A DNA stretch of 60,278 nucleotides, the filler included, from Stramenopiles sp. TOSAG23-6 (lineage: Eukaryota): the NCBI GenBank assembly GCA_900128565.1. It is 14 parts of 14 records of this genome, joined end to end, with 100 filler letters (N's around TTAATTAATTAA, not from the genome) between each part and the next. Parts side by side here need not be neighbours in the genome. Positions count along the whole stretch, not along the records: positions 51,777 to 55,977 come from LT637231.1; 13 more parts are not named here. The stretch is one strand, 5' to 3'. How positions within the stretch are numbered: the stretch's first letter is position 1; each line of letters opens with the position of its first letter. Below, one piece after another: positions 8,518 to 59,971 of the stretch. Made by a program: the position numbers and the translations under genes. A model generated the notes under the pieces. The model was not told where the DNA came from and did not search any database. It saw only the letters and a program-made list of their open reading frames with translations.

Positions 8518-8673
8518 GTGTATTTTGGAAAAATATTTCAAAAAAAATCTAAAAAAAATTGTTAGGTACAAAANNNNNNNNNNNNNNNNNNNNNNNNNNN
8601 NNNNNNNNNNNNNNNNNTTAATTAATTAANNNNNNNNNNNNNNNNNNNNNNNNNNNNNNNNNNNNNNNNNNNN

Positions 8674-21400: not shown

Positions 21401-21705
21401 TCATGCAATAGTACCCCAGACGCACAAGAAATGAAAACGAAGAGCCATGTTAAAATAAAGAAGGCTGGCGAAGTTGCAAGCAAAAAAATCGGGCAGGGTG
21501 TCGACAAAATGATAACTAATGTTNNNNNNNNNNNNNNNNNNNNNNNNNNNNNNNNNNNNNNNNNNNNTTAATTAATTAANNNNNNNNNNNNNNNNNNNNN
21601 NNNNNNNNNNNNNNNNNNNNNNNTTTCAAAAAAAAAAACTTAAATTTGTTAGGTACAAAATTTCGTACGAAAAAAAATTCAAATTTGAAAAAAAATAAAA
21701 CATAC

Positions 21706-30141: not shown

Positions 30142-30376
30142 TTAATNNNNNNNNNNNNNNNNNNNNNNNNNNNNNNNNNNNNNNNNNNNNTTAATTAATT
30201 AANNNNNNNNNNNNNNNNNNNNNNNNNNNNNNNNNNNNNNNNNNNNCATCATGAATTTTTTACCAAAATTTTTTTTTTTTTTTTTTTTTTTCGTAAAAAA
30301 AAAAAATAAAAAAAAAAAAAAATTGTACCTAACAAACAAACCAAAAATAACATTGAAATATTGTACAAAACTACAG

Positions 30377-32047
30377 AATCGTCGTGATGTGAAGAAAATG
30401 TCAGGAATAAAAGAAAAACGTAAATCAATTCAAGCCGAGTCTAATAAAAGATTGCAAAATATACGAGAAAATGCCGCTGCTTCAAAAATACAGTCTTTAT
30501 TCCGCATTAAAAAAGCTCGCGATGAAATTAGAATTCGACAAAATGAGAATGAGGCAGCACTTGCTGCTGCAAGTAGCCCTGAGGAACGTGAACGTTTGAA
30601 GAGAAAGCAAGCAGATGAAATGGCAGCTATGAAAATGGCTGGTTCTATGAAGAGTCTCATGGCTGATAAGTTGGCAAAACAGAAAGCAGCAGAACGTCAA
30701 GAAGCTGAAAAAATAGAGAGTGCTCATGTTCAACATGAATTGGAACAGCATAGTGCAACGTTACTCCAAAAAATGTATTTTTTATTTTTTTTCAAATTTC
30801 ATTTTTTTTTTATAGTAAATTTTGTACCTAACAAATTTTTTTTTTTACGAAAAAAAAAAAAATATTTTTTACAAAAAATGTATCGTTCAAAGCGGGATCG
30901 TGATCATTGTACAAAGCTTATCAAAGACTTGAGAGCAAAACATGGTAATTCGATATCTATTGCAGAGTTACGTGCTCGATCCAAAGCTGAATTGGAAGAA
31001 ACAAAGAGGAAAAAAGAAGCTGCAGCAATCAAACTAAAGCTTGCAGGAAATGCAGAACAAGAAGCAGAAATGCAGGCGGCAACCACACGGTTGCAAAGTA
31101 TGTTTCGAGGTTCAAAAGCAAGACAAATACGTAGAGATAAACAAGCTGAATTTGAGAAGCGTGAAAAAGAAGAAAAGCAAAAGGACAAAGCAGCATTACA
31201 AATGCAAATGTTATTCCGTGGGAAAAAAGCTAGAAGTGCATATGACTTGAAAAAGGCTGAATATGAAAAACGACGTCAGGCTCTGTTAGAACAGGAAGGT
31301 ATGAAAGAAGAATTAGAAAGATTAAAGAGGCAACAAGATCGAGAGCTTTGTGCCTTACGTGTCCAATCGGTAATGCGATCTAGATGGGCTCGAAGAAAGG
31401 CAAAAGATATGGCTCGTCGTAAAGAACGCGCTCGCCGTGAGGTCCAACGAAGGCTTAATGAGAAAAATTCGGCTATTATTATTCAATCAATGTATCGTTC
31501 TCGAAGAGACAGACAACAAATTCAGGCGATGCGACGTCAAGCTAAAGTTGCTGCAAGGAAGCGTGCTAAAGCATCAGCTGAAGTTGACGCACAAACAAAG
31601 CAAGAGGAAGCATTGCAGCAAGACAAATGGATAGAATATTGGGATGAGGGAGCCCAAGCTTATTATTGGTTTAATCCAAGAACCCAAGAAGCTAGGTGGG
31701 ATAACCCCAATGATGATAGCACTGACACACATGCAGGAATGGAATCAACCACAATGGACACTGGGTATGAGAGCGCATATACTCATGGGACGGTAACTGA
31801 CTATGATACAGATAATGTAGATTATGGCTATAATGATAGTAGCAATGAATATGGCTATCAGGCGGAAACACAATACGATGAATATGGTAACCCTATCTAT
31901 CAAGACGCAGGATATGGAGAAGAATCATATGGCGCTGGTAGCTACTCTGAAACTTCTGGAGCATCAGAATGGACAGAACACTATGATGATGCCAGTGGTC
32001 AGACGTATTATTTTAATGCTTCTACTGGTGAAACTCAGTGGGCATGA
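30377..32047 (+). CDS. IQ-motif coiled-coil protein with two WW domains, 5' partial
   Basis: IQSLFR, LQSMFRG, IQSMYRS motifs; WIEYWDEGAQAYYWFNPRTQEARWDNP; upstream partial intron ends CTACAG. Confidence 0.85.
   Translation, partial: NRRDVKKMSGIKEKRKSIQAESNKRLQNIRENAAASKIQSLFRIKKARDEIRIRQNENEAALAAASSPEERERLKRKQADEMAAMKMAGSMKSLMADKLAKQKAAERQEAEKIESAHVQHELEQHSATLLQKMYFLFFFKFHFFFIVNFVPNKFFFLRKKKKYFLQKMYRSKRDRDHCTKLIKDLRAKHGNSISIAELRARSKAELEETKRKKEAAAIKLKLAGNAEQEAEMQAATTRLQSMFRGSKARQIRRDKQAEFEKREKEEKQKDKAALQMQMLFRGKKARSAYDLKKAEYEKRRQALLEQEGMKEELERLKRQQDRELCALRVQSVMRSRWARRKAKDMARRKERARREVQRRLNEKNSAIIIQSMYRSRRDRQQIQAMRRQAKVAARKRAKASAEVDAQTKQEEALQQDKWIEYWDEGAQAYYWFNPRTQEARWDNPNDDSTDTHAGMESTTMDTGYESAYTHGTVTDYDTDNVDYGYNDSSNEYGYQAETQYDEYGNPIYQDAGYGEESYGAGSYSETSGASEWTEHYDDASGQTYYFNASTGETQWA
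30775..30879 (+). mobile_element. Introner-like intron GT..AT (105 nt, 3n, no in-frame stop)
   Basis: Removal restores IQ motif LLQKMYRSKR; 12-nt direct repeat at junctions. Confidence 0.88.
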
Positions 32048-32168
32048 GTTTGAAAGATTATTACTGTTATTATATTAATATAAAGAGTTTCTTTTATGTA
32101 CCTTTTATCTTCTTTGGTGATTCTATGAAAAACACTCCAATCAACACAAACGATGTTGCTATTGTTAT

Positions 32169-32858
32169 TCACTCTTCAAAAAATGCAACATACTGCGTAT
32201 GCCCTTTTGCAAAGGTAGAAAAACTCACATGTTGATTAAATTCATCAGATACAAGGAACTCTTCAAAAATGTTGCGCCGCGCAGAAAATGGAAGGTCATA
32301 AAATTTAAGTTCATCTAAATCCAAAGCAGTTGTATCAGCCGAACTGTCAACGACTGGAATCTCTGGGTCCGCAGCAATATAGTCTTGACTTCCTTTTACA
32401 TATGGGATGAAACCTTCTGACTTGACCTCCTCGGATGCTGAAGAAAAATCGTGGAATATTTTTAGTCGTAGTGATTTAACAAGATGGTGAAAACCAATAG
32501 CATATAAATTTTCATCCATCACGTGAATTTCTCCCCGACTTCTTGGTTCATCGTCCAACAGTGATACCACTGAAAGATCTTCATCGAGTGGTACAAGTTT
32601 ATCGATTGGTGCGTCTTCGGGAATTGGAGCAAGTGTTTGTGTTTCTTCAATGGGAATCTCTGTGACTGATGGTGTATAATTTTGCGTTTTGTAAGGTTGT
32701 TCACTGTAATCTCCGCCTCTAAACTTTTTATTTTTCGATCCTTTTGACTTTTTTGTGTCTTCGTTCTTCGGTTTGCCTGAACAAAATCCGAAGCAACCAG
32801 CATAGGTTCCCTCAATGCTTAATACAAAACATACGAATATTAGGAGTGAAAACTTCAT
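32169..32858 (-). CDS. Secreted protein of unknown function
   Basis: Signal peptide MKFSLLIFVCFVLSIEGTYA; 229-aa ORF. Confidence 0.65.
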   Translation of the reverse strand: MKFSLLIFVCFVLSIEGTYAGCFGFCSGKPKNEDTKKSKGSKNKKFRGGDYSEQPYKTQNYTPSVTEIPIEETQTLAPIPEDAPIDKLVPLDEDLSVVSLLDDEPRSRGEIHVMDENLYAIGFHHLVKSLRLKIFHDFSSASEEVKSEGFIPYVKGSQDYIAADPEIPVVDSSADTTALDLDELKFYDLPFSARRNIFEEFLVSDEFNQHVSFSTFAKGHTQYVAFFEE

Positions 32859-33178
32859 GGAATTATAGTAAAGTGTCTAAATGATACTTTTCAAATATGA
32901 ATAAAATAGAGAATGATGTTATTTTAAGGTGAGATTATTGAAAAGATACTAGCTAGCATACCGTAGTATTTTTAGCATGATTTTTGAGATTGGAAAAAGT
33001 TGTATTATTTCGTGTATTTATTTTGTTTTGAACAAAATTTTCTAAAATAACGGCTAGCCTAGATACGGCGTATCTATTTTAAATACGTACAAGTATTTTG
33101 TGCATCTTATCCGAATAACGGTTATCTACACCGTACAGTATCATTTCAAGAAAACAAATCTAAATTATTTCAAAAAGA

Positions 33179-34345
33179 ATGAAGAAGGTTATCTTATCAA
33201 GCTTTGCTGTAGCAAACGTAGCACGATCTGCAATAATTCCTCATAAAGAACTTCTTGACCAATGGGATGTCCTTACGAATGAGTTTAATAATATTAACAT
33301 TGACTCAAACGCTAACACGGAATACCGTACTCTAATGGCTCGTATGCGTTTACAATTAGCGAAATACGCGCTTTTCGCAGATAATTTGGAAAAAATTGAG
33401 AGAGACACAATTCTCGATATCGCTGAAAAAATCTTTCAGAACGTTCATCCTTTGTCGATGCGAGCTCTGGGTAATGTTCTCCGAATTGCTGAAGGTATGA
33501 ATCCTACAAATCCCTCGGAACCTGTTTTGACATTTCTCAACAACTCTAATCCACCACAGCAACCTCCCGGAGAAAACATATTGTTACGTCCTCTTCTAAA
33601 TTTTCAAAACCAAATAACGGCTAGTCCACCCGTTGATCAATTACTTGCTGGTGAGTTAGCAAAACAAGGTTCATGGTTGTATACTGCTTCAAAAGAAGGT
33701 AATGAAGAAGCCGTTCGTCAACTTATCGCTCTTGGTGTTGATGTCAATGACGCTGATAAAGACGGATATACGCCATTGTATATTGCTTCACAGAATGGTC
33801 ATGTTAAAGTAGTTGAAGAACTTCTCAAAGCGAAGAATATTGATGTCAATCTAGCTGCAAAAGACGGCGATACACCATTGCATGTTGCTTCATATCACGA
33901 TCATGTTGGAGTAGTTCGACTACTTATTGAGAATGGTGCTGATGTCAACGCTGTTTATGAGGAATGGACCCCATTGTATATTGCTTCGGAAGAAGGTAAT
34001 GTAGCAGTAGTTGAAGAACTGCTCAAAGCAAAGGGAATTAACATTAATAAGGCTGATAAACACGGAGTTACCCCATTGTCAACTGCTTCACGGGATGGTC
34101 GTGTTGAAGTCGTTAAATTACTTCTTGAAATGGGTGCTGATGTCAATCAGGTTGATAAATTCGAAAGAACCGCATTGTATGGTGCTTCAGAGAAGGGTCG
34201 TGAAGGAGTAGTTAAACTACTTATTGCTGCAGATAAAGTTGATGTCAATAAGGCTGACAAAAACGGAGCTACCCCATTGTTGATTGCTTCACGGTATGGT
34301 CATAAAAAAGTAGTTGAATTACTTAAGGATGCAGGTGCAGAGTAG
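33179..34345 (+). CDS. Ankyrin-repeat protein (~7 repeats), possible signal peptide
   Basis: Repeated GxTPL..AS..G...VV..LL. Confidence 0.9.
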   Translation: MKKVILSSFAVANVARSAIIPHKELLDQWDVLTNEFNNINIDSNANTEYRTLMARMRLQLAKYALFADNLEKIERDTILDIAEKIFQNVHPLSMRALGNVLRIAEGMNPTNPSEPVLTFLNNSNPPQQPPGENILLRPLLNFQNQITASPPVDQLLAGELAKQGSWLYTASKEGNEEAVRQLIALGVDVNDADKDGYTPLYIASQNGHVKVVEELLKAKNIDVNLAAKDGDTPLHVASYHDHVGVVRLLIENGADVNAVYEEWTPLYIASEEGNVAVVEELLKAKGININKADKHGVTPLSTASRDGRVEVVKLLLEMGADVNQVDKFERTALYGASEKGREGVVKLLIAADKVDVNKADKNGATPLLIASRYGHKKVVELLKDAGAE

Positions 34346-34683
34346 AGAGCTTGGGATGAACACCATATGTAACCCCTTTCGAATGGGAAAACAATACCAG
34401 GCCATGACGTATCCATACCCAATGTTCATACAGTGAAGAAAGATATAATAAAANNNNNNNNNNNNNNNNNNNNNNNNNNNNNNNNNNNNNNNNNNNNTTA
34501 ATTAATTAANNNNNNNNNNNNNNNNNNNNNNNNNNNNNNNNNNNNNNNNNNNNCATCATGAATTTTTTACCAAAATTTTTTTTTTTTTTTTTTTTTTTCG
34601 TAAAAAAAAAAAATAAAAAAAAAAAAAAATTGTACCTAACAAACAAACCAAAAATAACATTGAAATATTGTACAAAACTACAG

Positions 34684-36354
34684 AATCGTCGTGATGTGAA
34701 GAAAATGTCAGGAATAAAAGAAAAACGTAAATCAATTCAAGCCGAGTCTAATAAAAGATTGCAAAATATACGAGAAAATGCCGCTGCTTCAAAAATACAG
34801 TCTTTATTCCGCATTAAAAAAGCTCGCGATGAAATTAGAATTCGACAAAATGAGAATGAGGCAGCACTTGCTGCTGCAAGTAGCCCTGAGGAACGTGAAC
34901 GTTTGAAGAGAAAGCAAGCAGATGAAATGGCAGCTATGAAAATGGCTGGTTCTATGAAGAGTCTCATGGCTGATAAGTTGGCAAAACAGAAAGCAGCAGA
35001 ACGTCAAGAAGCTGAAAAAATAGAGAGTGCTCATGTTCAACATGAATTGGAACAGCATAGTGCAACGTTACTCCAAAAAATGTATTTTTTATTTTTTTTC
35101 AAATTTCATTTTTTTTTTATAGTAAATTTTGTACCTAACAAATTTTTTTTTTTACGAAAAAAAAAAAAATATTTTTTACAAAAAATGTATCGTTCAAAGC
35201 GGGATCGTGATCATTGTACAAAGCTTATCAAAGACTTGAGAGCAAAACATGGTAATTCGATATCTATTGCAGAGTTACGTGCTCGATCCAAAGCTGAATT
35301 GGAAGAAACAAAGAGGAAAAAAGAAGCTGCAGCAATCAAACTAAAGCTTGCAGGAAATGCAGAACAAGAAGCAGAAATGCAGGCGGCAACCACACGGTTG
35401 CAAAGTATGTTTCGAGGTTCAAAAGCAAGACAAATACGTAGAGATAAACAAGCTGAATTTGAGAAGCGTGAAAAAGAAGAAAAGCAAAAGGACAAAGCAG
35501 CATTACAAATGCAAATGTTATTCCGTGGGAAAAAAGCTAGAAGTGCATATGACTTGAAAAAGGCTGAATATGAAAAACGACGTCAGGCTCTGTTAGAACA
35601 GGAAGGTATGAAAGAAGAATTAGAAAGATTAAAGAGGCAACAAGATCGAGAGCTTTGTGCCTTACGTGTCCAATCGGTAATGCGATCTAGATGGGCTCGA
35701 AGAAAGGCAAAAGATATGGCTCGTCGTAAAGAACGCGCTCGCCGTGAGGTCCAACGAAGGCTTAATGAGAAAAATTCGGCTATTATTATTCAATCAATGT
35801 ATCGTTCTCGAAGAGACAGACAACAAATTCAGGCGATGCGACGTCAAGCTAAAGTTGCTGCAAGGAAGCGTGCTAAAGCATCAGCTGAAGTTGACGCACA
35901 AACAAAGCAAGAGGAAGCATTGCAGCAAGACAAATGGATAGAATATTGGGATGAGGGAGCCCAAGCTTATTATTGGTTTAATCCAAGAACCCAAGAAGCT
36001 AGGTGGGATAACCCCAATGATGATAGCACTGACACACATGCAGGAATGGAATCAACCACAATGGACACTGGGTATGAGAGCGCATATACTCATGGGACGG
36101 TAACTGACTATGATACAGATAATGTAGATTATGGCTATAATGATAGTAGCAATGAATATGGCTATCAGGCGGAAACACAATACGATGAATATGGTAACCC
36201 TATCTATCAAGACGCAGGATATGGAGAAGAATCATATGGCGCTGGTAGCTACTCTGAAACTTCTGGAGCATCAGAATGGACAGAACACTATGATGATGCC
36301 AGTGGTCAGACGTATTATTTTAATGCTTCTACTGGTGAAACTCAGTGGGCATGA
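34684..36354 (+). CDS. IQ/WW protein (duplicate copy; intron 35082-35186)
   Basis: Identical to 30377-32047. Confidence 0.8.
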   Translation, partial: NRRDVKKMSGIKEKRKSIQAESNKRLQNIRENAAASKIQSLFRIKKARDEIRIRQNENEAALAAASSPEERERLKRKQADEMAAMKMAGSMKSLMADKLAKQKAAERQEAEKIESAHVQHELEQHSATLLQKMYFLFFFKFHFFFIVNFVPNKFFFLRKKKKYFLQKMYRSKRDRDHCTKLIKDLRAKHGNSISIAELRARSKAELEETKRKKEAAAIKLKLAGNAEQEAEMQAATTRLQSMFRGSKARQIRRDKQAEFEKREKEEKQKDKAALQMQMLFRGKKARSAYDLKKAEYEKRRQALLEQEGMKEELERLKRQQDRELCALRVQSVMRSRWARRKAKDMARRKERARREVQRRLNEKNSAIIIQSMYRSRRDRQQIQAMRRQAKVAARKRAKASAEVDAQTKQEEALQQDKWIEYWDEGAQAYYWFNPRTQEARWDNPNDDSTDTHAGMESTTMDTGYESAYTHGTVTDYDTDNVDYGYNDSSNEYGYQAETQYDEYGNPIYQDAGYGEESYGAGSYSETSGASEWTEHYDDASGQTYYFNASTGETQWA

Positions 36355-36475
36355 GTTTGAAAGATTATTACTGTTATTATATTAATATAAAGAGTTTCTT
36401 TTATGTACCTTTTATCTTCTTTGGTGATTCTATGAAAAACACTCCAATCAACACAAACGATGTTGCTATTGTTAT

Positions 36476-37165
36476 TCACTCTTCAAAAAATGCAACATAC
36501 TGCGTATGCCCTTTTGCAAAGGTAGAAAAACTCACATGTTGATTAAATTCATCAGATACAAGGAACTCTTCAAAAATGTTGCGCCGCGCAGAAAATGGAA
36601 GGTCATAAAATTTAAGTTCATCTAAATCCAAAGCAGTTGTATCAGCCGAACTGTCAACGACTGGAATCTCTGGGTCCGCAGCAATATAGTCTTGACTTCC
36701 TTTTACATATGGGATGAAACCTTCTGACTTGACCTCCTCGGATGCTGAAGAAAAATCGTGGAATATTTTTAGTCGTAGTGATTTAACAAGATGGTGAAAA
36801 CCAATAGCATATAAATTTTCATCCATCACGTGAATTTCTCCCCGACTTCTTGGTTCATCGTCCAACAGTGATACCACTGAAAGATCTTCATCGAGTGGTA
36901 CAAGTTTATCGATTGGTGCGTCTTCGGGAATTGGAGCAAGTGTTTGTGTTTCTTCAATGGGAATCTCTGTGACTGATGGTGTATAATTTTGCGTTTTGTA
37001 AGGTTGTTCACTGTAATCTCCGCCTCTAAACTTTTTATTTTTCGATCCTTTTGACTTTTTTGTGTCTTCGTTCTTCGGTTTGCCTGAACAAAATCCGAAG
37101 CAACCAGCATAGGTTCCCTCAATGCTTAATACAAAACATACGAATATTAGGAGTGAAAACTTCAT
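36476..37165 (-). CDS. Secreted protein (duplicate copy)
   Basis: Identical to 32169-32858. Confidence 0.6.
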   Translation of the reverse strand: MKFSLLIFVCFVLSIEGTYAGCFGFCSGKPKNEDTKKSKGSKNKKFRGGDYSEQPYKTQNYTPSVTEIPIEETQTLAPIPEDAPIDKLVPLDEDLSVVSLLDDEPRSRGEIHVMDENLYAIGFHHLVKSLRLKIFHDFSSASEEVKSEGFIPYVKGSQDYIAADPEIPVVDSSADTTALDLDELKFYDLPFSARRNIFEEFLVSDEFNQHVSFSTFAKGHTQYVAFFEE

Positions 37166-37485
37166 GGAATTATAGTAAAGTGTCTAAATGATACTTTTCA
37201 AATATGAATAAAATAGAGAATGATGTTATTTTAAGGTGAGATTATTGAAAAGATACTAGCTAGCATACCGTAGTATTTTTAGCATGATTTTTGAGATTGG
37301 AAAAAGTTGTATTATTTCGTGTATTTATTTTGTTTTGAACAAAATTTTCTAAAATAACGGCTAGCCTAGATACGGCGTATCTATTTTAAATACGTACAAG
37401 TATTTTGTGCATCTTATCCGAATAACGGTTATCTACACCGTACAGTATCATTTCAAGAAAACAAATCTAAATTATTTCAAAAAGA

Positions 37486-38652
37486 ATGAAGAAGGTTATC
37501 TTATCAAGCTTTGCTGTAGCAAACGTAGCACGATCTGCAATAATTCCTCATAAAGAACTTCTTGACCAATGGGATGTCCTTACGAATGAGTTTAATAATA
37601 TTAACATTGACTCAAACGCTAACACGGAATACCGTACTCTAATGGCTCGTATGCGTTTACAATTAGCGAAATACGCGCTTTTCGCAGATAATTTGGAAAA
37701 AATTGAGAGAGACACAATTCTCGATATCGCTGAAAAAATCTTTCAGAACGTTCATCCTTTGTCGATGCGAGCTCTGGGTAATGTTCTCCGAATTGCTGAA
37801 GGTATGAATCCTACAAATCCCTCGGAACCTGTTTTGACATTTCTCAACAACTCTAATCCACCACAGCAACCTCCCGGAGAAAACATATTGTTACGTCCTC
37901 TTCTAAATTTTCAAAACCAAATAACGGCTAGTCCACCCGTTGATCAATTACTTGCTGGTGAGTTAGCAAAACAAGGTTCATGGTTGTATACTGCTTCAAA
38001 AGAAGGTAATGAAGAAGCCGTTCGTCAACTTATCGCTCTTGGTGTTGATGTCAATGACGCTGATAAAGACGGATATACGCCATTGTATATTGCTTCACAG
38101 AATGGTCATGTTAAAGTAGTTGAAGAACTTCTCAAAGCGAAGAATATTGATGTCAATCTAGCTGCAAAAGACGGCGATACACCATTGCATGTTGCTTCAT
38201 ATCACGATCATGTTGGAGTAGTTCGACTACTTATTGAGAATGGTGCTGATGTCAACGCTGTTTATGAGGAATGGACCCCATTGTATATTGCTTCGGAAGA
38301 AGGTAATGTAGCAGTAGTTGAAGAACTGCTCAAAGCAAAGGGAATTAACATTAATAAGGCTGATAAACACGGAGTTACCCCATTGTCAACTGCTTCACGG
38401 GATGGTCGTGTTGAAGTCGTTAAATTACTTCTTGAAATGGGTGCTGATGTCAATCAGGTTGATAAATTCGAAAGAACCGCATTGTATGGTGCTTCAGAGA
38501 AGGGTCGTGAAGGAGTAGTTAAACTACTTATTGCTGCAGATAAAGTTGATGTCAATAAGGCTGACAAAAACGGAGCTACCCCATTGTTGATTGCTTCACG
38601 GTATGGTCATAAAAAAGTAGTTGAATTACTTAAGGATGCAGGTGCAGAGTAG
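37486..38652 (+). CDS. Ankyrin-repeat protein (duplicate copy)
   Basis: Identical to 33179-34345. Confidence 0.85.
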   Translation: MKKVILSSFAVANVARSAIIPHKELLDQWDVLTNEFNNINIDSNANTEYRTLMARMRLQLAKYALFADNLEKIERDTILDIAEKIFQNVHPLSMRALGNVLRIAEGMNPTNPSEPVLTFLNNSNPPQQPPGENILLRPLLNFQNQITASPPVDQLLAGELAKQGSWLYTASKEGNEEAVRQLIALGVDVNDADKDGYTPLYIASQNGHVKVVEELLKAKNIDVNLAAKDGDTPLHVASYHDHVGVVRLLIENGADVNAVYEEWTPLYIASEEGNVAVVEELLKAKGININKADKHGVTPLSTASRDGRVEVVKLLLEMGADVNQVDKFERTALYGASEKGREGVVKLLIAADKVDVNKADKNGATPLLIASRYGHKKVVELLKDAGAE

Positions 38653-38914
38653 AGAGCTTGGGATGAACACCATATGTAACCCCTTTCGAATGGGAAAACA
38701 ATACCAGGCCATGACGTATCCATACCCAATGTTCATACAGTGAAGAAAGATATAATAAAANNNNNNNNNNNNNNNNNNNNNNNNNNNNNNNNNNNNNNNN
38801 NNNNTTAATTAATTAANNNNNNNNNNNNNNNNNNNNNNNNNNNNNNNNNNNNNNNNNNNNTTGTACCTAACAATTTTTTTAGAATTTTTTTTGAAATATT
38901 TTTCCAAAATACAT

Positions 38915-41900: not shown

Positions 41901-42536
41901 AGTCTATTGTTCGTGATGTTGTGTATAGCTGGATTGTCACTTGTCATCAAAATACAAAAAATACAGAAAATACAGAAAATACAGAAAATACAGAAAATAC
42001 AGAAAATACAAAATCGATTCTATCCAAAAACACACGAAATCTGATAATTAAATGTCTTGGATTTTCTGTACCCAACCAAATGACAAATGATGAATTTTGG
42101 TCATATTGGAAGAAAGGCCTTTATACACAACTACAACATGAATCGATAACACAAGATATATCTATACATAGATTTTTAGAATACAAACAACAAAGGGCTT
42201 CAACGCTAGGAATCATTCAAAAACACGAAAAAACAATATTTGAATATAATATAAAACGAGAGAAAAGTCTACTGTATGTTGTATTTTTTTTTTGTTTTCG
42301 AAAAAAAAATCGATTTTTGTTTTTTATACGAAATTTTGTACCTAACGAATTTTTTTTTTGAAATATTTTTCCAAAATACATGCATTTTTGTGGGATAATT
42401 CGTGAATTGGAACAACGTCGATTATGGCAAAAAAGAGCTGAATTACAGACTACATCAAGCGCAGCTGTTGTTGCTTGGCATCGAATTTTAAATAGTGTAA
42501 TGCATGTACTTTTTTATCATGAACATTTTCAAATTT

Positions 42537-42579
<43 letters not shown>

Positions 42580-42988
42580 ACCAAAATCCATACCTAACAA
42601 ATTTTTATCTAAAAAAAAGATATTTCTTCACAGTGTATGAACGTGGACTTTGGGGCAGTTTAAATTCTATGATTGAAAGTGATGTAACCAATGAAAGCTG
42701 TAATAGAATGGTTCCATCCTCTTTACTATCACCTTCATCATCAACAACACCATCTAATCATTCAAAATTTGGACAACAACAACAAAAGAAACAAAAAAAA
42801 ATGTTTTGGGAGCTTGGAGTATTTTTTTTTTTTCATACATTTTTTTTTCGATTTTGTTTTTGCATAAGAATATCATGAATAACAATTTTTTTATCCTAGC
42901 ATTATTTCACACTAACCCTAACCCTAACCCTAACCCATAATTATTTCACACTATAGGCAACATCAGGCCGCCAATTAGGAAAACGCAT
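38915..42988 (+). CDS. Internal fragment of a large multi-exon protein, probably BEACH family
   Basis: Spliced WHRILNSVMH|ERGLWG...FWEL resembles the region preceding PH-BEACH; Asn-rich inserts; 8 or more introns. Confidence 0.55.
39396..39495 (+). mobile_element. Introner-like intron GA..AT (100 nt)
   Basis: AT|GAATGTTTT...AAAATACAT|; in frame GKSYHNHH. Confidence 0.7.
39748..39830 (+). mobile_element. Introner-like intron GT..AT (83 nt)
   Basis: AT|GTATGT...AAAATACAT|; in frame. Confidence 0.8.
41096..41257 (+). other. Degenerate family intron GT..AG with duplicated donor region
   Basis: TT|GTATGT...AAGTACAG|; in frame LLCVLEPID. Confidence 0.6.
41416..41618 (+). other. Expanded T-rich family intron GT..AT
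   Basis: TC|GTTTGT...TAATAAAT|; in frame SRSRMLWC. Confidence 0.6.
42274..42381 (+). mobile_element. Introner-like intron GT..AT (108 nt)
   Basis: CT|GTATGT...AAAATACAT|; in frame. Confidence 0.75.
42506..42638 (+). mobile_element. Introner-like intron GT..AT (133 nt)
   Basis: AT|GTACTT...CAGTGTAT|; the CAG 5 nt upstream is out of frame. Confidence 0.75.
42819..42956 (+). other. GT..AG intron containing (CTAACC)4
   Basis: GGA|GTATTT...CTATAG|GCA; telomeric tract 42912-42936. Confidence 0.6.
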
Positions 42989-43397
42989 GTATGTTTTATT
43001 TTTTTTTCAAATTCGAATTTTGTTTCGTACGAAATTTTGTACCTAACAAATTTAAGTTTTTTTTTTTNNNNNNNNNNNNNNNNNNNNNNNNNNNNNNNNN
43101 NNNNNNNNNNNTTAATTAATTAANNNNNNNNNNNNNNNNNNNNNNNNNNNNNNNNNNNNNNNNNNNNGTAAAACGTCAAAAGATAGAAAATAAAGGTGCA
43201 CAGAATTTATTTGAACTTGGTTTNNNNNNNNNNNNNNNNNNNNNNNNNNNNNNNNNNNNNNNNNNNNNNNNNNNNNNNNNNNNNNNNNNNNNNNNNNNNN
43301 NNNNNNNNNNNNNNNNNNNNNNNNNNNNNNNNNNNNNNNNNNNNNNNNNNNNNNNNNNNNNNNNNNNNNNNNNNNNNNNNNNNNNNNNNNNNNNNNN

Positions 43398-47372: not shown

Positions 47373-47526
47373 NNNNNNNNNNNNNNNNNNNNNNNNNNNN
47401 NNNNNNNNNNNNNNNNTTAATTAATTAANNNNNNNNNNNNNNNNNNNNNNNNNNNNNNNNNNNNNNNNNNNNTTGTACCTAACGATTTTTTTTAGATTTT
47501 TTTTGAAATATTTTTCCAAAATACAT

Positions 47527-50500
47527 ATTCAATCAATAGATGCTGGCCANGAGTCTGTTGTTGCAATTTTAAAAGATGAAATTGAAATATTAAATAAAGA
47601 TTCTTTACAATTGCGAAAAGACGTCACAAATTTAAAAGAGAAATCTTCAAAAAGTTCATCGAATTTAAGCGAAGCTATACAACAACATAAAGAAGAAATT
47701 GTAAAAATTAAAATTGAAAATGAAAACAAAATGAAAAAACAAAAAAATGAATGTGAAGACAAAGTCCACAATTTAGAAACTCAAGTATCAGAATGGAAAA
47801 AAACACATGAAATTATAGTACAAAAATTTGATTCTAGAGAACAAACTCTTCTTGAAAATCAGAAATCGATTACAGTCCATGTTTGTTTTATTTTTTTTTT
47901 CAATTTTTAAAAAAAAAAAATTTGGTTTTTCGTACGACATTTTGTACCTAACAAAAAAATCGAATTTTTAATTTTTTTTCACAAAACATCATCAAAAACA
48001 AATTTCGGATTTGACTATACGACTAAAAAACGAAAACAATTTAGCAATAGAACGGTTACAATCGAATCATCTGGAAGAAATGGCAAAGCTGCAAAAAGAA
48101 AGATATTCTTTAAAAGTTGAATTGTCAACCTACATTCAAAAGTTGAATGATGCAAAAGTTGAAACAAAGGCTCTGCAGAGTAATAGTGTAGATGATGAAA
48201 ATCGGTTGAATACGCAAGTATTGCAGTTAGAAGATTTACTCGAGGATACTATAAAAAAACACGAAATCGTATTGAAAGAGAAATCAGCATCGCATTCGGA
48301 TGCTATAGCTAAATTATGTGAGAAATATACTCTAGAATTAGAAAAGTTACGTCAAACATCAAAGTCAAATTATCAAACCGAACTCGATACAATTCATGAA
48401 AATCATTTGAATACATCGAAACAATTAGAAATGAAGGTGTATGTTTTATATGAATTTCTAATTTAAGTTTTTTTCATACGAAATTTCGTACCTAACGATT
48501 TTTTTTTGAAATATTTTTTCACAATACGTCATTGAATGGAAAACAAAGTACGAAAATGACGTTCAAAAAAATGAAATAAAATTTGAGGAAGAAAAGAAAC
48601 ATCATACATTAGAAATTTCACATATTTTGAAAGAGCATAAACATACAATAACATGCTTACAACAAAAATATTCTGTGGATGTTGAACGCTTAGCTCAGCA
48701 TTATAGCAACCGCACAGACCAAGTTCAGAAAATAGCTGGAAGTTATAGAAAGGAAGTCAAACGCCTTGAGAATGAAGTAGATGAATGGAAAATGAATCAT
48801 AATCGTCTGATTGAGGAGCATGTAAGTTCTCGTTTTTTTTTCAATTTTTTTTTTTCAATTTTTTTTTATAAAAATGTTGTACCTAACAAAAAAAAATGAA
48901 ATATTTTTACAGTACATGAATCTGATGAAAAAGAGAGGATTGCGACATTTCAAGATACACTTCAGCGACTCGCCGATCNTCACAAAGATGAACTTTCAAG
49001 ATACGTTGAACAATTTGAAAATGAGAAAGCTATTTCATTGAATAGATTACAAGATTCACATAATGATGAGGTGACACGTGTCCGATTACAAATTACAAAT
49101 TCACAGAATTCACTTTCAGATGTAACGGCAACTCTTGAAGAAAAGCACAAAACCGTCCTGCTAGAAAAAGAACAAAATTACCGCNATAAAGAAGCAAAGT
49201 TGATTCTTGAGCATAATCATGAGAAAGAGAAAGTTTTATCTGACTTGAGAAAACAACATTCNATAGAGATAGACCGCTTAAACACGCAAATTCGTCGTTG
49301 GAAAAGTTCTTATGACGATGCTCTCGTAAGGAACGATCTTATTCTTGTGGAGGGAGAAAAAATAAGGAAAGATGAAATGTCTGGTATTACACAAAAATTT
49401 GAAGAGGATTGTAAAGAATTGAAATTGAAATTCGAAATAGAAAAAAAAAGCGCCATTGAACAACACGAAATAAAAAATAAATCAGATCTATCTCGAATGG
49501 AAAGAATGGCTACAATGTGGAAAGACTCTCATTATAAAGCAACTCAACAACATGAAATTTCATTGAAAGAGCTCAAAAGAGATCACGATGAATTGGTCAA
49601 AGAAAACCATCAGCTTCAATTGGAAGCACTACAATTTCGTAATCAATACATTGATCAAAGCTCCAACTATGAACGAACTTGTAAAATGAGTGATATAAGA
49701 AAGATTAAAGAAGAGTTGTACGAATATAAAAAAACTTCTGTATCTCTTGAGAAATACAAGAACGATATGAAACAAAAAGATGATACATGTATGTTTTATT
49801 TTTTTTTTCAATTTTGATTTTTTTTCGTACGGAATTTTGTACCTAACGAATTTTTTTAGAATTTTTTGAAATATTTTTCCATGATACATATTCAAAAGAA
49901 ATTATACAAATGCAAAAAGACAATAAAAAAATAATTTTGGAGATGGAAAGAAACAAAAAAACACTTGAAAATTCGNTAGCTACGAAAATTNGTACCGATT
50001 CATCAGTTCATTCTCAAATTGATGAAAAAATGAAAATTAAAGCAATTATTTCAGGACAAACNTTTTTGAGTACAGACGATTCAAAAACAACTGATGAGCT
50101 TCAGTGTAATGTATGTTTTATTTTTTTATTTCGATTTTTTTTCATACNAAATTTCATACCTAACGTTTTTTTTTTTTNAAATATTTTTTCATAATCCATA
50201 TAAACAAAGTTAAGAATTTTCAAATCGTTGTGAATGAATGGAAATGTAAATATGATGATGTTTTGAACAGAAACAAAAGTTTGATTTGTAAACATGAAAA
50301 TGTATGTTTTTTTTTTTGTATGAATTTTTTTTTTATAAAAATTTTGTACCTAACAAAATTATTTTTTTTTGAAATATTTTTTCACAATACATGTAATTTC
50401 AATGTTGCAGGAGTCGCATAAAAATACATTACAAATGGTGACAGATAGCTTGATGAAAGAGTTTACCATTGAAAAAACGACNGTGGAAAAAATGTGTAAA

Positions 50501-51574: not shown

Positions 51575-51776
51575 GTATGTACGTTTTATTTTTTTTCAAT
51601 TTCGAATTTATGTTTTTATAAAAATTTTGTACCTAACAAATTTTAGTTTTTTTTTTTGAAATATTTTTCCAAAATANNNNNNNNNNNNNNNNNNNNNNNN
51701 NNNNNNNNNNNNNNNNNNNNTTAATTAATTAANNNNNNNNNNNNNNNNNNNNNNNNNNNNNNNNNNNNNNNNNNNN

Positions 51777-52746
51777 ATAAATGGATGGGTAAATCGGAGA
51801 AAGGTGATTCAACAAAAAATGACAAATCAAAGTTTGTAGCAATGTCTTTGTTGTATCAAAGAGAAAGCCAAAAGCCGGATTGGCCGAATACACTAAAAAC
51901 GTTGAAGGAAGCGGCGAAAAACAACGGTACTTTGAAGAATATTGAAAATGAAGCTGATAAATGGATGGGTAAATCGGAGAAAGGTGATTCAACAAAAAAT
52001 GACAAATCAAAGTTTATAGCAATGTCTTTGTTGTATCAAAGAGAAACCCAAAAGCCGGATTGGCCCAATACACTAAAAATGATGAAAAAACAAGCGGAGA
52101 GCAATGATACTTTGAAGAATATTGAAAATGAAGCTGATAAATGGATGAGTAAATTCGAGAAAGGCGGTTCAGCAACAAATGACAAGTCAAAGTTTGTAGC
52201 AATGTCTTTGCATGTTTTATTTTTTTTTAAATTTGAGTTTTTTTTTCGTACGAATTTTTGTACCTAACGATTTTTTTTTGAAATATTTTTCCAAAATACT
52301 TGTTGTATCAGAGAGACATTCAGAAAGAAAATTGGCCTACAATTTTCAAAACGTTAAAGGAAGAACAGGCTAGTAGCATGGATTTAATATTAAAAGAAGC
52401 TTTAAAAATGAAACAAATATTGGAAACGGGAGCAACTAAAGCACAACCAGCAGAATCTCAAGGCAGCGACGACAATATTGAAGAAAAGGCAAAACATTTG
52501 ATGAATAAATTGAAACTTGGATTGGATACCTCTGAAGGTTCAACCGAATCGGTGAATGAAGGAATAGATCAAGCAAAATTGGATGAGTGTATTTCTCATA
52601 TCAAAACGGAAGTAACAAAGAAAAATTTTCATNTAATTTTTAAGCGTCATAAAAAAGAAATGGGCTGTAATATTTTATCATTGGCAAAAAATACGTTACT
52701 ACANGAAGGTTATAAATGTTTCTGTAACAATGCTAGTAAAAAATAA
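51777..52746 (+). CDS. Protein with 60-aa (180-bp) tandem repeats, 5' partial
   Basis: KWMGKSEKGDSTKNDKSKFVAMSLLYQRE units; third unit interrupted. Confidence 0.75.
52210..52301 (+). mobile_element. Introner-like intron GC..TT (92 nt)
   Basis: TT|GCATGT...AAAATACTT|; the empty site is visible in two preceding repeat units. Confidence 0.92.
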
Positions 52747-52918: not shown

Positions 52919-54641
52919 TTACATTATAAATGCTCTAACAAGATTCTCTACTTTAAATTTTTTCCCTGTAGTTGGACAAATTACATGACTACCTCCATTT
53001 ATTTTCGCAGACAAATCCATCCAAGATTTACTAAAGACTTCGCCATTAGGTAACACCATTGGAGGATTTTTCTCATCCATTGGTAATTTTGAAGCCCTAC
53101 AGACAAGTCGCGTATGTATTATAAAAAAATATTTCAAAAATTTGATTTTTTTTGATTTTTCAGTTAGGTACAGAATTCCGTATGAAAAAAAAATAAATTT
53201 AATTTTGAAAACATGCATGTGAAAGACGAGTCGATGGAAGTGGTTTTGTAAGTTCTCCTAGTACACTATCACAACAAGGACATTCAACTNATTTCGTGTT
53301 TTTATTGAAACATGCAGGACCTTTCAAAGCACCTGTATTGTTAAAAAGTANTAAAAGATAAAAAAAATAAAAGTCGTTTGGTACAAATTTTTCCGACCAA
53401 AAAAAAATTAAAGGTAGGGTTAGGGTTTGTTGAAAAAACGTACTTAGTCCTGCTTCTAAATGTAAAGATAGTAAAGAAAAATACGATATACCGAATATTT
53501 TCCTAAAACTAGTATCAAATAATTGAGTAATAATATTCCACCGTGACGGACAAAATAAATCAGAATATGCCTCAGGGATGTATTTCGGAAAAATATTTCA
53601 AAAAAAAAATTAAAAATTTATTAGGTACAAAATTTCGTACGAAAAATAATTTCGATTTTTTTTTACCGGAAAAAAAAAAAAATAAAACGTACATTGTTGA
53701 TTCAAGAGATTCACTGGAAGGACTTGTAAATGCTAGGGTTGTCCTAGACTATTAAAACAATATTTTTCAAAAATTTAAAATTTGTTAAAAAGATATTTTC
53801 TAAAAATTTAAAATTTGTTCAATGTGCTAGTACTACAATTGAAATTATAGGAATAGAAAAAAAAAATTAAAAAAAAATTAAAAAAAAATTAAAAAAAAAT
53901 GTTAAGTACAAAATTAAGTACGAAAAAAAAAATGTAGATGAAAACGTACATTACTCTTTGTACTGTCTGTAATTGATCTGGGTTTGAAGATGCATCTTGA
54001 AAATATTTCCGCGCTATGATAATTGCTTTTGATCTCTCACCTTTCCGAACATGTTCTATAAACTCTTGTACACGAAGATGAAATTCTAGATTGCTTTTAA
54101 TCCGTCTTAGTTTTGACTTATTTTCTTCAACCCACTGAAAAGCTAATTTAAATTCTTTTCTCCGCAAACTCTCTCGGATTCGTCTCGCTTCTTCCCAAAG
54201 TTTATAATCAGTCAAGTCTTCAATATNACAATAATTAGCAAGTAAACGAGCACTTTGGAATTTTCCAGTTTGAAGGAAGTGTTCTAATAATAAAATAGTA
54301 ATTCTATGCTTNGAAACGTCAGCAGGGTTATTGATGTGTTGAATTCGTTTTTGGACGGTCTGGAGACATTCTTTTTCTCTTTTATCAAATATAGTCTGCT
54401 GNTTCTTTAATTCTGATAAACGCGAATNTATTTCACTCAACCGAGCTAATACGTCCGCATTTGTTTTATCTCTATTTATTTGTACAAGTTCTTTGATTTG
54501 TTTCACTGTCGCTACAACTTTCTTTTCAGTGGTTCGCTGAGAAATTCTAAAATTACGGGAAAAGTTTTCAAATGGAACTCGTAAAAATGATCTGTCCATC
54601 GGGAACTCATCATTCAGTGTACGTGGTGTCTTTTTCTCCAT
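52919..54641 (-). CDS. MAEA: MAEA/Fyv10 (GID/CTLH E3 ligase subunit), 5 exons
   Basis: LRVPFE, SNLEFHLRVQEFIE, LEAGLSALK, RLVC...NPPMVLPNG; introns 53744-53949, 53578-53692, 53333-53443, 53114-53216. Confidence 0.9.
53114..53216 (-). mobile_element. Introner-like intron GC..AT (103 nt)
   Basis: AT|GCATGT...TAATACAT|; gives LSHTRLVC. Confidence 0.88.
53333..53443 (-). other. Family intron with canonical GT..AG ends (111 nt)
   Basis: AA|GTACGT...CAATACAG|; gives EAGLSALK. Confidence 0.88.
53578..53692 (-). mobile_element. Introner-like intron GT..AT (115 nt)
   Basis: AT|GTACGT...GAAATACAT|; in frame. Confidence 0.85.
53744..53949 (-). other. Degenerate family intron GT..AG (206 nt)
   Basis: AT|GTACGT...GTCTAG|; gives QRVMTTLAF. 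Confidence 0.8.
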
Positions 54642-55043: not shown

Positions 55044-55894
55044 ATGCAATATTCAGGTCAGATACAAGACGGTAAGATGCATGGGAAAGGCACGCTTATA
55101 TATCAAAATGGAGAAAAATACCAAGGTGATTGGGTAATGGGGAAACGCCATGGCGTTGGATCATATATTTATCTTGATGGGGGTAGATACGAAGGCGAAT
55201 GGGTTGATGACAGGATTACAGGAAAGGGGAAAAGTATATACGCAAATAAAAACGTTTATGTTGGAGACTGGGCAGATGGTAATATTTCGGGGTTTGGTGT
55301 ACTGACCTATGTTGATGGCGATAAGTACGAAGGAGAATGGGCATCTAATCAAATGCATGGTAATGGAACTTATTTTTACGCAAGTGGAGATATGTATAAG
55401 GGCGAATGGAGAAACGATAAACGGCATGGTAGAGGGGTAGTTTCTTACATGCAAATGTATGTTTTATTTTTTTTAATTTCGAATTTATTATTTTTTTCGT
55501 ACGAAATTTTGTACCTAACGAATTTTTTTTCAATTTAGAATTTATTTTTCCAAAATACATAGATGGTAAAACGGTTGCTGAGAAATACGATGGTGAATGG
55601 TCCTGTGGAAAGATGCATGGAAATGGAAAATATTATTATTCTGATGGAGGAATATATGAAGGCCAATGGGTTGACTCAAAAATGGTCGGGAAAGGAACGT
55701 ATTTGTTTGCTAATGGCAATAAATATGAAGGCGATTGGAAAAATGACGTAAAAGATGGTCACGGCATACTCACTTACGTGAATGGAGAGCGATTCGATGG
55801 AAATTGGAAAAATGATAAAGCACATGGATTGGGCTCTATTATATATGTATCTGGTGATAAATTTTCTGGGAATTGGGTAGAAGGTAAAAAACAT
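55044..55894 (+). CDS. MORN-repeat protein, 3' partial
   Basis: Repeated YEGEW..D..HG.G...Y. Confidence 0.9.
55457..55560 (+). mobile_element. Introner-like intron GT..AT (104 nt)
   Basis: AT|GTATGT...AAAATACAT|; gives [18 protein letters not shown]. Confidence 0.88.
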
Positions 55895-56269
55895 GTATGT
55901 TTTATTTTTTTTCAAATTGGAGTTTTTTTTTTCGTACGAAATTTTGTACCTAACAAATTTTTTAGAATTTTTTTTGANNNNNNNNNNNNNNNNNNNNNNN
56001 NNNNNNNNNNNNNNNNNNNNNTTAATTAATTAANNNNNNNNNNNNNNNNNNNNNNNNNNNNNNNNNNNNNNNNNNNNACCATTTTTTCCAAAAATCCTTA
56101 ATCTTCAAAAAAAATCAGATCTGTGCGCGGTGTGATAGCAAATATTTAGTATTATTTACGCGACTGTTCGTACTACAATAAATACAGTACTACCTCTACT
56201 TTTTCACGGACGACGAGGCGGAAAGTAAAATCAATCATCTAACAAAAGCAAACATTACACAAATAAGAA

Positions 56270-58978: not shown

Positions 58979-59971
58979 TTATATAAATTGTAGTGCAAAC
59001 GCTCTATTCCCAAAGTTAGTATTAGCAAAGATATCAACTACAGAATTTTCTCTACTAGCACCAGCAGCAGCTAGACACTGAAAATCTTCAACTGGATTAA
59101 TACCAAGACAATATAGCGAACTTGTACCCTCTGTTGCTTTCACATGTATTGTAGTACAATATTTCAATTTGTAAAATTTGTTAGGTACAAAATTTCATAC
59201 CAAAAAAAAAATTTAAAAAAATAAAAAAAATCTTTTTTGTTTAGGTACAAAATTTTCATACAAGTAAAAAAACGTACGTGACTAATTAATTCACCATTAT
59301 GTTTCCAAGTAGATACGTAAGGTGACGCACCGACAGAAGAAAATTGATTTGGTTCTGACCCTAAACCAATTGGATGGCATTGAACCGCATTAACAACTTC
59401 ATTTGTTGACCACGCAAAAGTTCCTGAAAAACTTGTAGCATGTTTTATGAAAAAATATTTCAAATGTTTTTTTCATAGTAAATTTTGTACCTAACAAATT
59501 TTCAAAAAAAAAAAAAAAAAAAAGTTTTGTTTAGGTACAAAATTTCGTACCAAAAAAAAAATGAAATTCATGATGAAAACGTACATGTACTACGTGAAGA
59601 AATCCATTAGACTTTGTGGATTTCTGTTGTGTTACATTTGTACGTGATGTCTTATCTACAGACACACGTATTGTGAAAAAATATTTCAAAAAAAAATCTA
59701 AAAAAATCGTTAGGTACGAAATTTTTTTACCAAAAAAAAAAAAAATTAAATTAGAAATTCATATAAAAAATACACTAGTGACGTCACTTTCGTAACCACC
59801 TCCGATAATGATCCAATTCCCTGTATCATCAGCTCCAAGAGAACTAACCCAAGATTTTCTATGTTTTTCTTTCAAGTTTTTTCTTGTTGAAATATTTTTT
59901 AAAGTTATATTTGACATATCTATCTTATGAACTTGCTGTTCTGTACGAGGATCCCAAAATCGTACAGTTCC
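58979..59971 (-). CDS. THOC6: THO complex subunit 6-like WD40 protein, C-terminal 4 exons
   Basis: GTVRFWD, WVSSL...NWIIIGGG, AAAG...VDIFANTNFGNRAFALQF. Confidence 0.7.
59144..59277 (-). mobile_element. Introner-like intron GT..AT with tandem core (134 nt)
   Basis: AC|GTACGT...CAATACAT|. Confidence 0.8.
59440..59584 (-). mobile_element. Introner-like intron GT..AT with inverted second core (145 nt)
   Basis: AT|GTACGT...TAAAACAT|. Confidence 0.8.
59666..59773 (-). mobile_element. Introner-like intron GT..GT (108 nt)
   Basis: GT|GTATTT...CAATACGT|; in frame. Confidence 0.8.

Follow-up and report, generated by a model that had tools for sequence, protein, structure and literature searches.

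A probable intron of an abundant introner-like family without a 3' AG interrupts one unit of a coding tandem repeat in Stramenopiles sp. TOSAG23-6

Introduction

The DNA analyzed here is a stretch of 60,278 nucleotides, filler included, from Stramenopiles sp. TOSAG23-6 (assembly GCA_900128565.1), which we call the window, and the element in question is a stretch of 92 nt at positions 52210-52301 that interrupts the third unit of a coding tandem repeat. We consider that this insert is probably a true intron and one copy of a very abundant introner-like family in an uncultured marine protist. Sequenced mRNA lacks exactly these 92 nt and, throughout the family, the removed block corresponds to the core of the element plus two bases. 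How new introns arise and how far the need of the spliceosome for a 3' AG can relax are open questions, and the family touches both. The one sequence studied here brings together an empty-site control in the form of two sister units, a removal from RNA that leaves no scar, and a 3' cut that ignores AG.

Results

The insert and its empty-site control

A sequence-only reading of this stretch had described two uninterrupted 180-bp units followed by a third that carries an insert of exactly 92 nt, and this description was confirmed. Alignment of the three units with MAFFT (51777-51956, 51957-52136 and 52137-52408), which that reading had proposed as a check, results in a single gap of 92 columns in units 1 and 2, located between ...ATGTCT and TTGTTGTATCA..., and the skip seen in RNA (below) has the same length. 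Tandem Repeats Finder reports a period of 180 with 2.4 copies and 90% matches over 51777-52210. The array begins at the first base of its contig and the number of units found here is a lower bound.

The trinucleotide TTG stands at 52208-52210 and again at 52300-52302 and, because of this direct repeat at both ends, the removed block can start at 52208, 52209, 52210 or 52211. The four equivalent registers are TT..AC, TG..CT, GC..TT and CA..TG; as had been noted from the sequence, none of them has a 3' AG and none is GT..AG. It is the GC..TT register that gives the positions 52210-52301, with GCATGT at 52210-52215, a 5' GC within a hexamer that is compatible with U1 and U6.

When the insert is read through, a stop is met after 19 codons. 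Removal of the 92 nt gives ...KFVAMSLLYQRDIQKENWP... and a frame that stays open up to the stop at 52744-52746, and the product, ...FVAMSLLYQRDIQKENWPTIFKTLKE..., matches ...MSLLYQRESQKPDWPNTLKTLKE... of the sister units. Two removals that would end in an AG can be compared with it: GC..AG removal of 52210-52311 (102 nt) shifts the frame, which runs into a stop, and GC..AG removal of 52210-52313 (104 nt) stays in frame with a product that would lose LYQR. Only the 92-nt removal restores both LLYQR and the open frame. Units 1 and 2 are a valid internal empty-site control for exact excision.

The same reading had also suggested a recent gain of the intron after expansion of the repeat, which the data do not show. 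The identity between units 1 and 2 is 91.7%, and unit 3 shares with either of them only 67-68% overall (88-89% over the first 83 nt around the site). The closest copy to the insert within the window shares only 88% identity with it. What the data show on timing is limited to the lack of the intron in the lineage of units 1 and 2. The most economical reading is one gain in unit 3 after its split from the ancestor of units 1 and 2; alternatively, an old intron may have been lost before units 1 and 2 duplicated. We leave the timing loose because unit 3 is far older than the duplication of units 1 and 2 and because no other copy stands out as a close relative of the element.

RNA and DNA reads at the insert

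Fifteen sequencing runs hold window sequence. Three small one-organism DNA runs (X1-X3) hold 0.65-0.84 of the sampled words, and the remaining runs are metagenomes and metatranscriptomes of seawater or plankton that hold 0.05-0.33 of them. Read contigs were compared over 51777-52632 for X4 (of kind 'DNA?') and for X5, X7 and X8 (RNA), and all statements on contigs in this paper refer to the contigs listed for these runs.

The contig that spans the joint is record 20 of X7, a poly(A) metatranscriptome. In this contig of 187 nt (depth 7.67) positions 52118-52207 are joined to 52300-52396 and 92 nt are skipped, with no mismatch over 90 + 97 nt and no extra letters; three letters at the joint fit either side. 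Its flanks are specific to unit 3 and it continues with TTGTATCAGAG from 52300, which places both exon parts side by side in mRNA. Its depth can be compared with 6.6-13.7 in the neighbouring exon contigs. Sequencing of cDNA across 52200-52310 had been proposed as the check on whether the insert is an intron, and at this joint the RNA contig lacks exactly the 92 nt, without retention. The identification of the insert as an intron was thus borne out, and the frame and homology tests on the family (below) give the same rule. The contigs of X5 and X8 leave the joint uncovered.

The earlier claim that removal is necessarily non-canonical fared less uniformly. The removal itself is non-canonical according to the RNA contig, which joins the exons exactly at the 92-nt skip and in this way settles the choice of 92 over 104 nt. 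The sequence alone is no proof of this, since the 104-nt GC..AG removal would also be in frame.

Inside the element the read depth reaches 10^4-10^5 in all large runs, which indicates that the element family is extremely abundant in nucleic acids from seawater.

Size and consensus of the family

An nhmmer profile built from 33 copies finds 57 matches with E <= 1e-3 in the 60 kb window, among them the insert under study (52209-52302, E 1.6e-15). In its short form the family consensus is GTATGTTTT ... GTACCTAAC ... a T-rich stretch ... CCAAAATAC, and in full it is GTATGTTTTATTTTTT ... TTTCGTACGAAATTTTGTACCTAAC ... a T-rich stretch ... GAAATATTTTT(C/T)CA(A/C)AATAC. The motif GTACCTAAC occurs 58 times in the window with at most one mismatch where 5.8 occurrences are expected, and if up to three mismatches are allowed, the 19-mer of the 3' end is present 29 times, compared with 0.38 expected. 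The median identity is 82% between nearest neighbours and 69% over all pairs. GTATGT or GTACGT opens 22 of the 34 complete copies, and the distance from the branch motif to the cut is 31-53 nt, with a median of 41.

These 34 copies were obtained from 40 branch-motif matches free of N runs, from which six were dropped: a copy in the duplicated contig, two chance matches in exons (28492 and 1479), a copy cut by the end of the window (60262) and two atypical or composite copies (5114 and 59487). One of the 34, m53909, was omitted from alignment A2, which has 33 rows. The complete copies break the reading frames of unrelated genes in all three phases (14/9/11), a distribution that fits insertion without regard to the codon.

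The removal rule

We define the core of the element as the part from the G of GTATGT to the C of AATAC, which was set by alignment of the 34 complete copies without the use of reading frames. Removal of core plus two bases (modulo 3) fits the longest flanking frames in 30 of the 34 copies, and in 23 of the 24 where both frames are clear (binomial p ~2e-10 for the frame test, against a chance of 1/3). The insert in unit 3, with 90 + 2 nt, lies exactly on this rule. By homology to known proteins, core plus two is the best-scoring removal in all three scorable introns, of which a MAEA-like gene contains two and an amino-acid transporter gene the third, and the supported junctions are GLSALKGPAC, LPSTRLSHTRLVC and VEVYADFSSFVFAY, the last of these in the conserved FAY region of the transporter; one further intron gave no stop-free candidate.

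A rule based on AG performs differently. When the first AG at least 6 nt past the branch-like A is taken as the end, the frame is kept in only 9 of 34 copies, which is the chance level, and 10 of 34 contain an unused AG downstream of that A but before the inferred cut. It seems to be the element's own end (...AATAC plus two bases), and not an AG, that sets the 3' cut.

An AG may nevertheless be usable where it is present, as seen in the first intron of the MAEA-like gene and in copies flanked by AG. In the former (53737-53949, minus strand) the start is family-like, with GTACGT and GTACTTAAC, and a 33-bp tandem repeat (53752-53819) takes the place of the 3' half. A canonical AG ~210 nt downstream appears to be used, which by hand reading gives RVMTTLAF, compared with RIMGLLAF in homologues. 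An AG forms the two bases after the core at 53335-53443 (minus strand) and in a truncated copy at 30251-30365 (plus strand, at the start of the piece that begins at 30238). As a separate observation, the copy m1143 (1104-1184, minus strand) has the 3' end AATCC in place of the usual AATAC, and another AATCC copy (50111-50197) obeys core plus two.

Register and direct repeats

Reading frames do not tell which two extra bases are removed, and the register of the cut can be read at one junction. In the copy m53384 the core is preceded by AA and followed by AG, so that the GT..AG reading gives GLSALK and the other registers give GLGALK. Among 49 MAEA homologues the residue in question is S in 42, A in three and G in none, and in four the motif was not found. 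In the GT register the 5' ends of the 34 copies are GT in 30, GA in two and GC in two, and the 3' ends are AT in 28, GT in three, and TT (the insert in unit 3), CT and AG in one each, with T as the last base in 33 of 34. The AT..AC register is less uniform, with an AT start in 21 and an AC end in 22 of the 34. Based on the S-versus-G junction of m53384 and on these uniform end bases, GC..TT is the most likely register for the insert, and the predicted cuts would then lie before the G and two bases past the terminal C.

In 24 of 34 copies the core has the same dinucleotide on either side (AT/AT in 20, GT/GT in three and TT/TT in the insert of unit 3). Copies with unequal flanks include m26693 (26653-26744), p42338 (42274-42379), m4860 (4812-4919) and m5553 (5499-5621). 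A 3' GT is found only together with a 5' GT (3/4 versus 0/30, Fisher p 6.7e-4). These 2-nt flanks look like a 2-bp target-site duplication, as far as the pattern of bases can suggest. Yet, 20 of the 24 matching flanks are AT/AT and could be part of the element, and no empty orthologous DNA site was seen; because AT is self-complementary, a duplication and an inverted repeat are indistinguishable in most copies.

RNA structure

The consensus ends of the element are complementary over ~9 nt with a bulge, in a pairing that is AU-rich and that has a C/A mismatch in the insert of unit 3. Across the alignment, 82.1% of the cells can pair compared with 81.1% in shuffles, and double changes are seen at three pairs, a number reached in 40 of 500 shuffles. 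RNAalifold predicted no consensus structure for the family. The fold of the insert is ordinary (z -0.51 against shuffles) and in its best fold the ends are left unpaired. Terminal pairing as a selected structure was dropped as a candidate, as it has no support beyond the conserved consensus itself, and so was the internal palindrome before the branch motif, with 76.7% paired against 76.2% in shuffles.

Two 5' halves placed head to head around an A-run make up a composite copy at 59438-59588, and on the minus strand the inverted half would give a 3' end that resembles a normal one (...AAAACATGC). This copy suggests that the termini of the element may be inverted repeats.

Features of the locus and of the window

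The features of the repeat array, the insert and its closest surroundings are collected in Table 1.

Table 1. Positions in the window of the repeat units, the intron and its motifs
Feature	Position	Strand	Remarks
Repeat unit 1 of 60 codons (ATGTCTTTGTTGTATCAA at the uninterrupted site)	51777..51956	+	Starts at the first base of the contig
Repeat unit 2, uninterrupted	51957..52136	+	91.7% identity with unit 1
Unit 3, part 5' of the intron, ends ...ATGTCTTT	52137..52209	+	88-89% identity with units 1 and 2; RNA contig covers 52118-52207 without mismatch
Probable intron of 92 nt, GC..TT register	52210..52301 (start 52208-52211, end 52299-52302)	+	RNA skip, 92-column gap, profile match
TTG, upstream copy of the 3-nt direct repeat, source of the register ambiguity	52208..52210	+	
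Second TTG of the direct repeat; the two bases removed in addition to the family core are its TT	52300..52302	+	
5' motif GCATGTTTT (family consensus GTATGTTTT; GC in 2/34 copies)	52210..52218	+	
Palindrome GTACGA-ATTT-TTGTAC that extends into the branch-like motif; 6-bp hairpin fold, no covariation support	52248..52263	+	
GTACCTAAC, branch-point-like motif (CTAAC), 34 nt before the 3' cut	52260..52268	+	
T-run and 3' motif GAAATATTTTTCCAAAATAC, the final C closes the family core	52270..52299	+	8 exact copies in the window
Exon 3' of the intron, with the remainder of unit 3 (...LLYQRDIQKENWPTIFKTLKE...) followed by a C-terminal part that is unique; stop codon TAA at 52744-52746	52302..52746	+	RNA contig covers 52300-52396
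Copy of the family that starts with GTATGT and is truncated where the preceding contig ends; maybe no genomic neighbour	51575..51676	+	

The interrupted gene itself has few relatives. No Pfam family was found for either exon or for the proteins that match weakly, and an exhaustive protein search with the gene returned just two weak C-terminal matches (E 2.8e-9 and 4e-4). Over its last ~60 residues (52560-52743) the protein weakly resembles a protein of 107 residues and, with E 2.8e-9, the C-terminal end of a protein that has 1994 residues and DUF7107 repeats. For the downstream exon (52302-52746) there was no protein match of similar length and no relative in a metagenome contig collection. 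Rfam gave no match in the whole window.

The window is made of 14 pieces of ~4.2 kb in the order of falling size, joined by N...TTAATTAATTAA...N filler with linkers at 4285, 8618, 12936, 17252, 21568, 25881, 30191, 34498, 38805, 43112, 47417, 51721 and 56022, and pieces that are neighbours here need not be neighbours in the genome. It is AT-rich (GC 0.23-0.43 per 2 kb) and its proteins are typically eukaryotic: RhoGAP, SPRY, MORN repeats, the amino-acid transporter and the MAEA-like E3 ligase. Single Ns are scattered within the pieces, and the pieces at 30238-34453 and 34545-38760 are identical over all 4216 bases, which we regard as assembly redundancy. Six short telomere-like runs, (CCCTAA)2-3 or its complement, lie inside pieces at 4605, 6766, 39356, 42916, 54791 and 57904, some of them in or beside introns.

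Family copies are also found near the ends of pieces, for example at 4158-4228, 8519-8573, 21624-21710, 38861-38914, 42984-43057, 47473-47528, 51575-51676 and 55890-55962. A family copy contains, or comes within 15 nt of, 13 of the 28 piece ends, two of them the ends of the window itself, and on this ground the intron family seems to have broken up the assembly. Outside the window, an exact 20-mer of the 3' motif was found at 15 loci, none of which is a family copy, and a 22-mer of the branch region had no match in the viral contig and genome contig collections.

Discussion

Proposed mechanism

A mechanism that agrees with these data can be suggested. The normal spliceosome would use the GTATGT 5' site of the element and its CTAAC branch motif, whilst the 3' site would be picked by the 3' motif of the element (...CCAAAATAC plus two bases) and not by scanning for an AG. 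The intron would begin at the G, with GT (here GC) as its 5' end, and would extend two bases past the terminal C to end in AT (here TT) and not in AG. These last two intron bases tend to be the same as the two that close the upstream exon, in the manner of a 2-bp target-site duplication. Since such an excision takes the element together with one copy of the repeat, it would bring back the original coding sequence without a scar in any codon phase. The spliceosome is favoured here because the GTATGT 5' end, the near-invariant CTAAC at 31-53 nt from the cut and the T-rich tract are parts that a spliceosome reads. A wider claim can be only tentative, and we rate its chance at somewhat less than even: that nearly every intron of this genome is a copy of one self-propagating element equipped with a 5' site, a branch site and a 3' motif of its own, that the spliceosome cuts two bases past the 3' motif of this element irrespective of which bases these are (with a terminal U in place of G), and that a GU...AU code holds genome-wide.

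Several observations weigh against the interpretation of the insert as an AG-independent intron of this family. The joint is spanned by a single contig of a single RNA run, which comes from a seawater community and not from the sequenced cell, and none of the DNA contigs listed bridges either exon-intron junction. In X4, record 6 (75 nt, 'DNA?') agrees with the upstream exon as far as 52210, and its next 15 letters are not placed on the intron; since this contig leaves the window sequence there, an intron-free or variant DNA allele may exist. The register is derived from one informative junction and from the consistency of the end bases, and not from reads. Four copies do not obey the rule: m1143 needs core plus one with clear frames, and p8051, m53909 and m17610 misfit core plus two with weak frames, m53909 using a downstream AG. 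Finally, we infer the spliceosomal step from motifs.

Other explanations

One question that is raised by the absence of an AG is whether a spliceosome takes part at all. Another way of excision has been proposed for Euglena and the hemistasiids, in which the intron ends pair (here it would be 5' GUAUGUUUU with 3' AAAAUAC), the RNA is cleaved at fixed places next to this helix by an endonuclease, and the exons are then connected by a ligase. The complementary consensus ends fit this possibility, as 82% of the cells pair compared with 24-66% when the partners are slid, and so do two or three copies with changes that look compensatory (GAAT/ATTC in m26693 and GTTT/AAAC in p47944), the short direct repeats at the borders, the lack of an AG and a cut at a fixed distance of 2 nt from the terminal C. 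However, the pairing does not rise above that in shuffles, no consensus structure is predicted and the ordinary fold of the insert leaves its ends free; the textbook GTATGT 5' end and the near-invariant CTAAC would not be needed by such a mechanism; and the signature N3-CDG ... CHG-N5-6|R, as given in PMC12501133, is absent in all four registers, in which intron positions 4-6 are CAT, ATG, TGT and GTT. We regard this kind of excision, the principal alternative, as unlikely for the family.

A different option is that the RNA contig derives from cells in which the DNA has no insert, so that the insert is a presence/absence polymorphism and disrupts the gene in the sequenced cell. The contig does come from a natural community, record 6 of X4 departs from the window right after 52210, and the very high metatranscriptome depth inside the element suggests that carried-over DNA or unspliced RNA is present. 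Against this, at least 30 other copies interrupt unrelated genes whose conserved proteins need the removal, and a genome in which all of these genes are broken is implausible; moreover, the joined contig matches both flanks of unit 3 without mismatch and at the depth of the neighbouring exons, and no DNA run showed the joined form among the contigs listed, which altogether makes a polymorphism quite improbable. The remaining options concern the ends of the intron and the assembly. U12-type introns have a 5' consensus [AG]TATCCTT and a branch consensus TCCTTAAC located 10-15 nt from the 3' end. If the register is moved two bases to the left (ATGTATGT...ATAC), 21 of the 34 copies have AT at the start and 22 have AC at the end, and CCTAAC faintly resembles the U12 branch consensus, so that U12-like or AT-AC-tolerant splicing can be considered. 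We find it very improbable, because the insert in unit 3 would then be TT..AC, the 5' motif is not that of U12 introns, the branch motif lies 31-53 nt from the end (34 nt in this insert), the GT register gives more uniform bases at both ends, and the MAEA junction favours the GT register. An ordinary GC-AG intron with its AG at 52312-52313 (104 nt, with a product that lacks LYQR), next to which the 92-nt form would be minor or artefactual, has in its favour that the frame is kept and that GC-AG is an accepted variant; it is extremely improbable given that the sole RNA contig over the site shows the 92-nt skip, that residues conserved in units 1 and 2 would be dropped and that AG rules fail in the family (9/34). 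As for an assembler that misplaced a repeat copy inside the gene, the 13 of 28 piece ends in or beside family copies would be in line with such an error, yet both junctions lie within a single contig and are flanked on either side by unique sequence, the RNA contig makes these flanks neighbours in mRNA and the insert obeys the family rule exactly, which leaves a negligible chance for an artefact.

Comparison with known intron systems

In Aureococcus anophagefferens, a stramenopile, and in Micromonas pusilla, introners are present as hundreds to thousands of near-identical short introns in unrelated genes (PMC7789003). The family described here resembles them in its many copies, the direct repeats at its borders, its putative terminal inverted repeats and the restored coding sequence, but those introners have canonical splice motifs (PMC7789003), whereas here the 3' end is AT, GT, TT and so on, with no AG in 33 of 34 copies and with internal AGs that are bypassed. 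In Amoebophrya (Syndiniales), introners are repeated introns without GT-AG and with complementary ends, on which gene predictors fail, and in these respects they are similar to our family (PMC7789003). Their ends form an inverted repeat of 8-20 nt and a direct repeat of 3-5 nt lies over the borders, which makes the cut ambiguous (PMC7789003); the insert in unit 3 has, by comparison, the 3-nt direct repeat TTG and a bulged AU-rich inverted repeat of ~9 nt with the C/A mismatch. The Amoebophrya introners show no clear signature in their first and last two bases, and Amoebophrya apparently lacks U1 (PMC7789003), in contrast to the uniform GTATGT, CTAAC and 3' motif seen here, and the terminal complementarity of our family, unlike theirs, is short, AU-rich and not predicted to fold.

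The introns of Euglena and of hemistasiid diplonemids also lack GT-AG, have short border repeats and are cut at a fixed distance from a conserved motif, which is paired in those organisms (PMC12501133, PMC6221363, PMC12621601), and single-cell genomes of marine diplonemids are reported to contain many non-canonical introns, predicted without transcript data. A diplonemid origin of the window, suggested by its non-canonical introns and by the seawater runs, was rejected in view of the MAST label of an identical public protein (below). Yet, hemistasiid introns have G/C-rich inverted-repeat ends and no U1-type 5' site (PMC12621601), whereas the present family is AT-rich, starts with GTATGT and comes from an organism with a stramenopile and not a euglenozoan label. 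In the tunicate Fritillaria borealis, most introns lack GT-AG and are considered to stem from MITE-like insertions and still to be removed by the U2 spliceosome (PMC12621601; 10.1101/2025.08.15.670264), which is similar to what we propose; they follow AG-A(N) patterns (PMC7789003), unlike our family, which keeps the 5' GT and replaces only the 3' AG. A likeness to U12-type AT-AC introns is found in that most family copies are AT...AC in one register, and the differences are in the 5' motif, the branch distance and the TT..AC ends of the insert. The family differs from these systems in that a canonical-looking 5' site and branch motif are kept and only the 3' AG is replaced, by a site two bases past a fixed motif.

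In the literature searched on the marine-stramenopile (MAST) lineage, including the main text of PMC5778133, PMC12614181 and PMC8163842, no mention of such introns was found. In what was available of PMC5778133 introns are named in the methods only, and its gene-structure supplements might bear on the novelty of the family; the available text of PMC12130899 does not mention MAST or stramenopiles.

Public gene models and implications

Another consequence is found in public annotation. The public protein eukprot:GSMAST32.ASY1.ANO1.294.1, an assembled CDS (P0050), is 100% identical to the transporter exon of the window; we read the name GSMAST32 as a putative MAST label. In the public model ...DIDKSKTS is followed by VRFQNYFFYLIFF..., an in-frame translation of the family element at 28961-29098, and on this basis the public annotation missed the transporter intron. 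Removal of core plus two at this element gives the conserved ...VEVYADFSSFVFAYQGQ... in place of VRFQNYFFYLIFF. Within the transporter gene (28344-30120), at 28926-29098, the public model enters the element after a 35-nt mini-intron that changes the frame. With at least one public model that translates an intron, gene catalogues and protein counts for this group may be badly distorted.

If our interpretation is true, new insertions in any codon phase would be removed without a scar, in a lineage for which only canonical introners have been known so far. If the rule of this family holds genome-wide, the organism would offer a compact natural system in which to study both the AG-independent choice of a 3' splice site and the spread of introns by transposition.

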